Sequence record: MK759854
DNA from: Shigella phage DS8
Length of the DNA: 44,605 bases
Direction: 5' to 3' (one strand)
The notes beneath the pieces were generated by a model. That model searched no databases. It had not been told where the DNA came from and saw only the letters and a program-made list of their open reading frames with translations. The translations under genes and the position numbers were made by a program. Below, piece after piece: positions 32,787-34,680 of this stretch (positions within the stretch are counted from its first letter, which is position 1; each line of letters begins with the position of its first letter).

Positions 32787-32800
32787 GGGCTTTGTTTATC
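32771..32800 (+). terminator. rho-independent terminator overlapping the stop codon
   Basis: Hairpin AAAGCCCTC-TAAGT-GAGGGCTTT followed by GTTTATC. Confidence 0.5.
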
Positions 32801-33140
32801 TGATCAGCATGCACAGAACAAATATTATTATCGCATAGCACAATATCTCTACGACGCTGAATATGGTTTTAATCATCCAGTTTCACACCGGGAATTTTGC
32901 CTGCTGCGATGGCGTCGTAAATGATTTCGTATTCGCTAAATAATTGGTACACTTCGCGCTGCGTCATTATCAACCTCACTTAATATATTCAACAATCTCG
33001 CATTCACGCATCTGCACCAGACCAAATGGCGCAACCACCTTACCGCACGGACGTATTTTGATTTGCTCAAGATTGAACACTCCGCAGCGTCCATTTTCTT
33101 TGAATTTGACCATTACCATGACTTTTATTCCTCACTATCT

Positions 33141-33199
33141 GGTTGATGTAGATACTATGTACCACCGCTCAATCTACGTCAATACCGTTGTGATAAAAT
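33141..33199 (+). promoter_or_regulatory. lysis-cassette promoter: inverted motif pair and extended -10 TGATAAAAT
   Basis: GGTTGATGTAGATA (33141-33154) and CAATCTACGTCAAT (33170-33183) form an inverted pair; TGATAAAAT at 33191-33199; motif-to--10 spacing matches the site at 44426-44455. Confidence 0.45.
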
Positions 33200-33225
33200 C
33201 AATCATTATTTGAACAGGAGGCAGA

Positions 33226-33504
33226 ATGAAACTATCGCAACGCGGCGTGGAGACGCTTGGAATCACCGATGCCGTGGATATATCGCCTTACATCACCACC
33301 GAGACAACGCAGAATCAGTTTGATGCACTAACAAGCCTTGCCGCCGACATCGGCATTGACACGTTCCGCAAGTCAACACTCCTGAAGAAACACAACCTCC
33401 GCTGCTTCTCATGTGCTGTTGCGTATTTCATCGTGTGGGGCGAAAAGACTGGCGACAAAGCAAAACGCAAGGCTGAAAAAGAGGTTTACTGGTATGGCTA
33501 TTAG
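33226..33504 (+). CDS. truncated GH24 (T4/P22-type) lysozyme homolog lacking the catalytic segment
   Basis: 92 aa; C-terminal TQNQFDALTSLAADIG...AVAYFIVWGEKTGD aligns with P22 gp19 (NQNQYDALCSLIFNIG...ADAFLLWKKAGKD, from memory), but about 50 residues carrying the catalytic Glu/Asp/Thr are absent. Confidence 0.5.
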   Translation: MKLSQRGVETLGITDAVDISPYITTETTQNQFDALTSLAADIGIDTFRKSTLLKKHNLRCFSCAVAYFIVWGEKTGDKAKRKAEKEVYWYGY

Positions 33505-33958
33505 CAAAAACATGAAGGCGTTTCTGGATATGCTGGCGTACAGCGAGGGCACGGATAACGGGCGGCAGAAAACCAATAATCATGGCTATGATGTGATTGT
33601 TGGTGGCTCACTGTTTACCGACTATTCCGACCACCCGCGCAAACTGATTAGCCTGCCTAAGCTGGGCATCAAATCCACCGCCGCCGGGCGATATCAGGTG
33701 CTGGCTAAGTTTTATGATGCGTACAAAAAGCAGTTGCGTTTGCCGGACTTCTCCCCAACATCGCAGGACGCTATTGCAATGCAGCTAATCCGTGAATGCA
33801 AGGCCACCGCCGATATTGAAGCTGGTCGCATTGCTGATGCTATTCATAAATGCCGCTCCCGCTGGGCTTCATTGCCGGGTGCTGGTTATGGTCAGCACGA
33901 ACAGAAACTGGATAAGCTGATTCAGGTATATAAAGAGGCTGGCGGAGCTGTGGCATGA
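33494..33958 (+). CDS. endolysin, lambda R-type lytic transglycosylase
   Basis: 154 aa; near-colinear match to lambda R (KAFLDMLAYSEGTDNGRQKTNNHGYDVIVGG...FTDYSDHPRKL...AGRYQ...WASLPGAGYGQHEQK); GAGG RBS. Confidence 0.85.
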   Translation: MAISKNMKAFLDMLAYSEGTDNGRQKTNNHGYDVIVGGSLFTDYSDHPRKLISLPKLGIKSTAAGRYQVLAKFYDAYKKQLRLPDFSPTSQDAIAMQLIRECKATADIEAGRIADAIHKCRSRWASLPGAGYGQHEQKLDKLIQVYKEAGGAVA

Positions 33959-34194
33959 AAAAGCTAAGCAACTGGCTGCTCGGCGCGTGGATTTCATTCT
34001 GCTCGCTGTTGCAGCTATGGCCTGATGCAATGATGCATGTGTGGGTAATGATGCCGGACGACCTGAAAGCAGCGCTGCCGCCAATCGTGGTTAAAGGTGT
34101 GAGCTACTCAATCATGCTGATTGGTATTCTTGGCAAAATGCACGGCATGAGGAAGGAAAACCGGAGACTGCGCAATGATGTCGATTCTCGCTAA
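33955..34194 (+). CDS. small membrane protein, holin candidate
   Basis: 79 aa; two hydrophobic segments and a basic C-terminus; ATGA-coupled to endolysin stop and overlaps Rz start. Confidence 0.4.
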   Translation: MKKLSNWLLGAWISFCSLLQLWPDAMMHVWVMMPDDLKAALPPIVVKGVSYSIMLIGILGKMHGMRKENRRLRNDVDSR

Positions 34195-34669
34195 ATACTG
34201 GCGACCACTGGCAATTATTATAATTGTTGTTATCTGTGCGCTATGGGTTGGCAATGAAGTATCCAGCTACGGCGACCAGCGATACGCAGAAGGCAAGGCT
34301 CAAGCAATCGCAGACCAGAAGGCCGCAGACGAACAAGAGGAGCAACGACGTAATGCAGAACTGCAAAAGATTCAGGCCGACGCACAGCAAAGGATTGACG
34401 CTGCGCGCAATGATGCTGTTAACGCTACTGCTAAGTCTGGCAGGTTGCAGCAACAGCTCGCAAATATCCGCAAGCAGCTCGTCGGATATTCCACCGCTGA
34501 GTCCATTGGCAATCCAGCCGCAGAAACCGGAGTTTTGCTCTCCCAACTGCTCTCAGAATCTGTCGAAAGAAATCGACAGCTGGCAGATTATGCTGACAGG
34601 GCAAGAGAGGCAGGATTAGCGTGCGAGGCGCAGTATAATTCGTTACGCAATAAAAAACCCCTCAACTGA
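34175..34669 (+). CDS. i-spanin (Rz-like)
   Basis: 164 aa; N-terminal TM (LAIIIIVVICALWV) followed by Ala/Gln/Arg-rich coiled-coil; position after endolysin. Confidence 0.7.
   Translation: MMSILAKYWRPLAIIIIVVICALWVGNEVSSYGDQRYAEGKAQAIADQKAADEQEEQRRNAELQKIQADAQQRIDAARNDAVNATAKSGRLQQQLANIRKQLVGYSTAESIGNPAAETGVLLSQLLSESVERNRQLADYADRAREAGLACEAQYNSLRNKKPLN
34410..34619 (+). CDS. o-spanin (Rz1-like lipoprotein) embedded in the +1 frame of Rz
   Basis: 69 aa; signal/lipobox MMLLTLLLSLAGC; Pro-rich mature part (DIPPLSPLAIQPQKPEF). Confidence 0.65.
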   Translation: MMLLTLLLSLAGCSNSSQISASSSSDIPPLSPLAIQPQKPEFCSPNCSQNLSKEIDSWQIMLTGQERQD

Positions 34670-34680
34670 GGGGTTTTGCT
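34652..34680 (+). terminator. rho-independent terminator after the lysis cassette
   Basis: Hairpin CCCCTC-AACT-GAGGGG flanked by an A-run and TTTT. Confidence 0.65.

Follow-up and report, generated by a model that had tools for sequence, protein, structure and literature searches.

A truncated GH24 lysozyme gene under purifying selection, with a probable accessory role in lysis, opens the lysis cassette of Skate/Vi II-E1-like siphoviruses

The window analysed here, the whole 44,605-nucleotide stretch from Shigella phage DS8 (MK759854), is the nearly complete genome of a Skate/Vi II-E1-like enterobacterial siphovirus. A head-morphogenesis gene and two small leftward open reading frames (ORFs) are followed by a rightward lysis cassette, in which a truncated GH24 gene comes first, then an R-type endolysin, a DUF7940 holin candidate, and a DUF2514 spanin, each stop codon overlapping the next start. 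The features of the cassette are:

33191-33199, plus strand: putative extended -10 promoter element TGATAAAAT, proposed from its conservation in relatives
33213-33218, plus strand: Shine-Dalgarno sequence AGGAGG of the truncated GH24 gene, read off the sequence and invariant in relatives
33226-33504, plus strand: truncated GH24 gene for a probable non-catalytic half-lysozyme (N-terminal stub plus C-lobe), from Pfam, AlphaFold2 (AF2), Foldseek, and dN/dS
33479-33484, plus strand: AAGAGG, a Shine-Dalgarno-like site for the R-type gene that lies within the 3' end of the truncated GH24 ORF, 9 nt before the ATG at 33494, read off the sequence
33494-33958, plus strand: lambda R-type (GH104) lytic transglycosylase, intact, 154 aa, from homology to lambda lysozyme with SEGTDNG kept
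33955-34194, plus strand: class II holin candidate (DUF7940; Pfam PF25612, E=1.2e-9; phrog_13249 'holin'), its start overlapping the R stop (ATGA)
34175-34669, plus strand: Rz-like i-spanin (DUF2514; Pfam PF10721, E=1.2e-30)
about 34353-34619, plus strand: embedded o-spanin in the +1 frame inside the i-spanin gene, with lipobox LAGC (the translation has LLLSLAGCS)
34658-34677, plus strand: hairpin CCCCTC-AACT-GAGGGG followed by TTTT, the likely cassette terminator, read off the sequence

The sequence-only reading of this DNA had described the first gene as an open frame with a promoter and a ribosome-binding site. The ORF is indeed intact and AGGAGG precedes it; the promoter fared less well, as a sigma-70 consensus scan upstream of the cassette found none on the plus strand. 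The candidate is the extended -10-like element TGaTA[A/G]AAT at 33191-33199, which is at least 90% conserved in 35 relatives (consensus TGATAGAAT) and was missed by the scan because it has no -35 match. At the far end of the cassette, the swi2 record annotates an equivalent 267-nt Rz1 that matches the embedded o-spanin, and the hairpin at 34658-34677 was not reported by the terminator scan.

The surroundings of the cassette vary among relatives. Between the head-morphogenesis gene and the cassette (32787-33225) lies a variable island of small leftward ORFs, two in the window, four in Bas78 (L002 1487-2929), and four in HC8A (L003 661-2296), with a divergent promoter-like site on the minus strand at 33182-33154. 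Relatives also differ in the later part of the cassette (L001 2875-3081; records LPST10 and Bas80): some have an extra small ORF between holin and spanin, and their spanin starts about 140-190 nt later; others have an annotated HNH homing endonuclease gene in the part of their sequence that aligns with the cassette.

The second gene starts at the ATG at 33494, overlapping the end of the truncated ORF by 11 nt, and the earlier identification of an intact lambda R-like transglycosylase at this overlap is borne out. Its 154-aa product matches lambda lysozyme (3d3d/1am7) at E=4.5e-62 over residues 3-153, is 67% identical to lambda R, and keeps SEGTDNG, the catalytic-Glu motif (the Glu19 motif of lambda R), which makes it a member of the R type; its dN/dS is 0.034. 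Judged by its sequence, this protein is the actual working endolysin of the phage.

The first gene has an ATG start and a length of 279 nt, and codes for 92 aa. The protein matches Pfam PF00959 (Phage_lysozyme) with E=7.5e-10, above the gathering score. The match is partial, with residues 19-78 falling on profile positions 55-114 of 125, and all PDB sequence matches lie within the C-terminal halves of GH24 enzymes. In alignments with full-length GH24 proteins, the GH24 N-terminus is represented by residues 1-7 (or up to about 18) and the C-terminal lobe by residues 24-92, minus five more residues removed by a second deletion; the EG, Y-x-D, and T-x-G-x-G catalytic motifs are among the roughly 49 residues that are gone. 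Residues 13-18 (ITDAVD) may derive from the end of the inter-lobe helix instead of the GH24 N-terminus. The earlier claim that the cassette opens with a GH24 lysozyme deprived of its catalytic segment is thus confirmed, and the GH24 alignment proposed with it places the gap over all three motifs, the catalytic Glu, Asp, and Thr being absent; what it called retained N- and C-terminal thirds is better described as a short N-terminal stub and a whole C-lobe.

A joint alignment of 52 truncated and 110 canonical GH24 sequences extends this picture to single columns. The catalytic Glu column, which sits at an ambiguous gap edge between the two sets, is E in 98% of the 110 canonical sequences and D or N in the 52 truncated ones. 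The [YF]-N motif of the C-lobe, whose Asn is 100% invariant in canonical enzymes, reads [TA]-[DSA] in the truncated set. The truncated family has invariants of its own, namely H56, C60, and C63 and the tail Y88-x-Y90-G91-Y92. The 92-aa protein therefore has the profile match of a GH24 enzyme and lacks the catalytic Glu and Asp/Thr; its AF2 model is a single helical domain instead of a two-lobed fold with a cleft between the lobes. With neither the N-lobe nor the catalytic Glu/Asp/Thr in its sequence, it cannot be a canonical muramidase, and its sequence argues against muralytic activity. Nor does it look like a holin or antiholin, which carry at least one transmembrane domain: its longest hydrophobic stretch (AVAYFIVW; about 13 residues, judged by eye) is too short for one, and the AF2 model is globular and helical.

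The fold predicted by AF2 from a 31-sequence alignment is a six-helix domain (pLDDT 89.6, pTM 0.82). In Foldseek, the model superposes on phage 21 R21 with an rmsd of 1.1 A over 74 residues and on the FAHEc1 endolysin 7m5i with a TMq of 0.82, the N-terminal helix included. Alignments of the model to GH24 structures are confined to their C-lobe and N-terminal helix, with rmsds of 1-2 A on GH24 C-lobes, and the predicted fold is that of the helical C-lobe in T4/P22-type lysozymes. Folding studies of T4 lysozyme place the N-terminal helix in the C-terminal folding subdomain, so the deletion would leave a roughly autonomous folding unit.

The gene belongs to a deep family. About 25 further truncated proteins, of 90-98 aa and 41-63% identity and encoded on 45-48 kb phage contigs, were recovered when 1.8 billion representatives were searched exhaustively and a profile search was then added. 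The truncated homologues P0053, P0054, and P0203-P0223 share the invariant H56/C60/C63 (HN..C[FY].CA) and an ERE[IV]Y-x-YGY tail, and 28 alignment columns are invariant in the family across 39-95% identity. Their contexts are syntenic, running from portal, Mu-F head protein, and small leftward genes through the truncated GH24 gene to an endolysin, DUF7940, and a spanin. The endolysin is of the R type in L087, L092, L093, and L081, and a GH108 + PG_binding_3 protein in L088, L089, and L094; no lineage has lost the overlap with the endolysin start, which measures 11-14 nt where R follows and 4 nt where GH108 does. The GH108 lineage keeps a YYYGY tail though no endolysin start codon lies within it, so the tail is constrained at the protein level. 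More than 100 sequenced Skate/Vi II-E1-group siphoviruses of Salmonella, E. coli, and Klebsiella have the truncated gene. In IMG/VR, it lies directly upstream in 33 of 33 loci whose R is at least 86% identical and in 0 of 15 loci whose R is at most 69% identical. At the loci examined, the truncated protein was never found without a complete adjoining endolysin, and its gene was always first in the lysis cassette.

Several observations stand beside this survey. The invariant His-x3-Cys-x2-Cys (C60-x-x-C63 at 33405-33413) lies at the start of a predicted helix and is common to the truncated family and the full-length GH24s of HC8A (L003) and VLCpiS13d (L004); other GH24s have D/N and G/A there instead. 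The cluster could bind a metal or act in redox chemistry. Two unrelated contigs (L096 120-425, P0061; L097 2501-2833, P0143) code for GH24-like proteins of 101-110 aa in which the N-lobe also seems to be without its beta-sheet part, with no second endolysin adjoining, and these may be independent cases of lobe loss; most other GH24 matches of 90-110 aa look like N-terminally cut gene calls. A record labelled 'Acinetobacter phage vB_AbaM_AB4P2' (OR544125.1) is about 91% identical over the matched parts of a 25-kb query (69% covered) and a 1.9-kb query; its host and morphotype label is unexpected for a Salmonella/E. coli siphovirus, and it is possibly a mislabel or contaminant.

Sister phages indicate where the truncated gene came from. 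In Escherichia phage HC8A, identity to the window is about 90% as far as 33246 (codon 7 of the ORF) and once more beyond the holin ATG at 33955; the interval holds a single GH24 of 146 aa, its catalytic motifs intact, and contains no R. Klebsiella phage VLCpiS13d has the same single-GH24 arrangement. These full-length enzymes share the HN..C[FY].CA signature with the truncated family, and therefore the truncated protein descends from the phage group's own GH24. The historical part of the earlier reading, in which a GH24 was the former endolysin of this slot, is accordingly upheld by close relatives such as HC8A.

Two short metagenomic contigs may represent evolutionary intermediates. On L091 (95-538, P0225), a 147-aa full-length relative with the family tail has Glu replaced by Tyr, the adjacent Gly by Pro, and Thr by Arg, and a GH108 gene is next. 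On L090 (332-763, P0224), a full-length GH24 with the family tail, active as far as its residues tell, is followed by R; L090 is a 1.1-kb contig and could be an assembly chimera. The order of events that we consider likely is the gain of a second endolysin, then the loss of catalysis, then the loss of the N-lobe. The ancestral phage would have had a single GH24 endolysin, as HC8A still does, and would have gained a second endolysin downstream of it; the GH24 copy would next have lost catalysis, passing through a full-length form with substituted catalytic residues, and later its N-lobe, while the C-lobe would have been retained throughout for some other job.

Selection was measured on 35 copies of the truncated gene, comprising the window, 32 IMG/VR loci, and two GenBank relatives. 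All 35 are intact at 279 nt, with the same 11-nt overlap with R and no indel or stop. The pooled Nei-Gojobori dN/dS is 0.119 (codon bootstrap 0.068-0.182), dS being about 0.36; read in its other two frames, this DNA yields omega values of 1.45 and 2.33, and variable sites number 27/17/70 at the three codon positions. In core codons 24-62, omega is 0.065, and in R it is 0.034. The truncated gene is under purifying selection at the protein level; the neutral evolution and accumulating indels or stops of a pseudogene were not found in it.

Two alternative accounts of the open frame were considered and rejected. Compensated frameshifts in P0029 and P0033, which might have meant that conservation goes no further than keeping the ORF open, are artefacts, as the homopolymer indels also break R: their source contigs from a related phage (L037 and L038; ENA ERZ1948697 and ERZ1948695) are error-rich long-read assemblies full of homopolymer indels, on which gene calls give frameshifted 92-aa proteins and broken endolysin genes. 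A programmed +1 frameshift fusing the truncated GH24 to R fails because the R frame upstream of its ATG is not kept open everywhere; 34 of the 38 loci have 36 open codons there, L011 and L017 just 7 and 10.

Pairwise distances of the truncated protein show no positive correlation with those of R (rho -0.01) or of the holin (rho -0.27). The one thing these distances tell is that the alleles of the holin are exchanged independently. Nearly identical truncated proteins adjoin holins that differ by up to 48%, which argues against a tightly co-evolving holin partner.

Engineered phages bear on whether the protein is needed. All 70 GenBank records of the seszw CRISPR genome-reduction study keep the region, and genes presumed essential by homology were left untargeted in that study (PMC9825161). 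One of its phages, seszw_30L (L095, MZ375299.1, 851-1582, equivalent to 33226-33958 of the window), has a 1-nt deletion at nt 169, after His56. The last 36 residues are replaced, and the resulting 243-aa product, which GenBank annotates as a single 'lysin', joins residues 1-56 through a 33-residue out-of-frame linker to the complete R-type endolysin. Since seszw_30L was isolated as a viable large-plaque phage despite the frameshift, the intact truncated protein is not essential in the laboratory.

The analysis thus shows a product that is translated, selected, non-catalytic, foldable by prediction, dispensable in culture, and always coupled to a complete endolysin. On balance, we think it somewhat probable that 33226-33504 is a functional gene for a non-catalytic, GH24-derived half-lysozyme, neither endolysin nor pseudogene, whose product is expressed along with the endolysin and assists lysis as an accessory protein. 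The suggestion that the remnant had been repurposed gains support to the extent that the protein is under selection and is predicted to fold.

How such an accessory factor might work can be outlined with moderate-to-low confidence. The half-lysozyme would be co-produced with the endolysin from the strong ribosome-binding site of the cassette, would accumulate as a soluble cytoplasmic protein, and would reach the periplasm through the holin lesion, where it would tune lysis and not be required for it. It may act by binding peptidoglycan through the surviving half of the substrate groove and the aromatic C-terminal tail, or by binding a lysis partner. Should the lost [YF]-N motif be one that lines the substrate groove, its absence would speak against glycan binding having been retained. 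A specific endolysin chaperone is argued against because two unrelated endolysin folds follow the truncated gene.

A more specific proposal is that the half-lysozyme is a portable non-catalytic regulator, in which His-x3-Cys-x2-Cys would serve as a redox or metal switch in the oxidising periplasm, timing or potentiating the coupled GH104 or GH108 endolysin. We regard this version as rather unlikely.

Somewhat less likely again is a role in translation alone, with the ORF kept open as a leader that couples ribosomes started at AGGAGG to the endolysin and then to the holin and spanin, and with a peptide that has no function. The stop/start overlaps that chain all four cassette genes would suit such a leader, as would the endolysin-start overlap preserved with both R and GH108, and the sole viable disrupted mutant, seszw_30L, still feeds ribosomes into R as a fusion. 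Against this, the amino-acid constraint is strong in codons 24-62, well away from the overlap, and 28 columns stay invariant in a protein whose fold is confidently predicted. R also has its own AAGAGG site, and at such divergence a leader should have shrunk or drifted, yet the N-lobe alone was lost.

That the protein is a second lysin as annotated, still lytic or antibacterial through alternative catalytic residues or a non-enzymatic membrane effect, is very unlikely. The whole N-lobe, which in GH24 enzymes is one wall of the substrate cleft, is absent together with the catalytic Glu/Asp/Thr, the [YF]-N motif is lost, and a complete endolysin always adjoins the gene. The Skate genome announcement counts the transglycosylase alone as endolysin. 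PHROGs, however, already clusters the truncated proteins as phrog_10457 under the label 'endolysin', and GenBank records say 'lysozyme' or 'endolysin'. The swi2 paper adds an assay of a 92-aa homologue, 'lysin2' (279 nt), which shares 90% identity with the window protein: E. coli titres reportedly fell by about 1 log both when it was expressed inside cells and when it was added outside (PMC8185280). That protein was made as a trigger-factor fusion with a 52-kDa tag; the R-type lysin1, a true transglycosylase, gave the same 1-log effect, EDTA made no difference, P values were 0.01-0.05, and the design included neither a peptidoglycan assay nor a mutant control (PMC8185280). The killing result, which at face value suggests that the truncated protein is still lytic, is weak evidence for this, and the work shows that the trigger-factor fusion is soluble.

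Least credible is a decaying pseudogene, the neutral leftover of a recent endolysin replacement still open by chance, to which the 'endolysin replacement in progress' of the sequence-only reading would correspond: close sister phages do have an intact GH24 in the slot, the deletion had a one-in-three chance of being in frame, and a frameshift mutant is viable, but the selection analysis (omega 0.12 at a dS of about 0.36, with all 35 copies intact) effectively refutes it, the architecture persists to about 40% identity (41% within the family) before two unrelated endolysin families and across the swap between them, and the apparent frameshifted natural variants are the assembly errors described above.

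Comparison with known systems places the half-lysozyme more exactly. With the GH24 lysozymes T4 E, P22 gp19, and phage 21 R21, the truncated family shares C-lobe homology and the TQNQFDAL, STLLKK-N, F..W, and R..E motifs; it differs in lacking the N-lobe, the catalytic Glu/Asp/Thr, and [YF]-N, and in having gained H-x3-C-x2-C and the Y-x-Y-G-Y tail. The sister GH24 endolysins of HC8A and of Klebsiella phages VLCpiS13d, MK54, and KpV2811 share with the truncated gene its slot, its flanking holin and spanin, its first seven codons, and HN..C[FY].CA; over the common C-lobe they are 47-52% identical to the truncated protein. Unlike it, they are 146 aa long with intact catalytic residues, lack the aromatic tail, and have no second endolysin downstream.

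We class the half-lysozyme under the known idea of a dead enzyme relative retained beside an active one. SpmX of Caulobacter and Asticcacaulis, which is among the structural and NCBIfam matches of the truncated protein, is alike in that a phage-type GH24 domain is kept for a non-lytic role, that of a localisation factor. SpmX keeps the whole two-lobed GH24 domain inside a large membrane protein, whereas the phage protein is the C-lobe alone, a free 92-aa protein in a lysis cassette. The EnvC/NlpD dLytM domains are degenerate hydrolase domains that activate amidases as factors of the bacterial divisome, and PlyCB and the CBD-only products of CTP1L/CD27L are separately expressed non-catalytic endolysin subunits of Gram-positive phages; their likeness to the half-lysozyme, a dead or non-catalytic protein kept beside an active enzyme, would be one of analogy, with no homology. 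Gp1 of mycobacteriophage Ms6 is encoded by a small chaperone gene just upstream of lysA and overlapping it, and binds one specific endolysin. The half-lysozyme resembles it as a small soluble protein whose gene overlaps, stop to start, a downstream endolysin gene; the two are unrelated in sequence, and the half-lysozyme precedes two unrelated endolysin folds.

A conserved pseudo-lysozyme of this kind, stripped of its catalytic segment, was not found described in our searches of the literature. The finding bears on the annotation and biology of these phages in four ways:

(i) Records wrongly label the half-lysozyme as a second endolysin and one paper promotes it as a second lysin, while its carriers include phages proposed for therapy and biocontrol.

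(ii) The question is directly testable, since the BASEL phages Bas77-80 and seszw are amenable to genetic manipulation.

(iii) The repurposing of a dead enzyme can be followed through a natural series made up of the intact GH24, the catalytically dead full-length form, and the lobe-deleted form.

(iv) Conservation of the half-lysozyme by selection and its survival of an endolysin exchange point to an undescribed accessory function in Gram-negative phage lysis.
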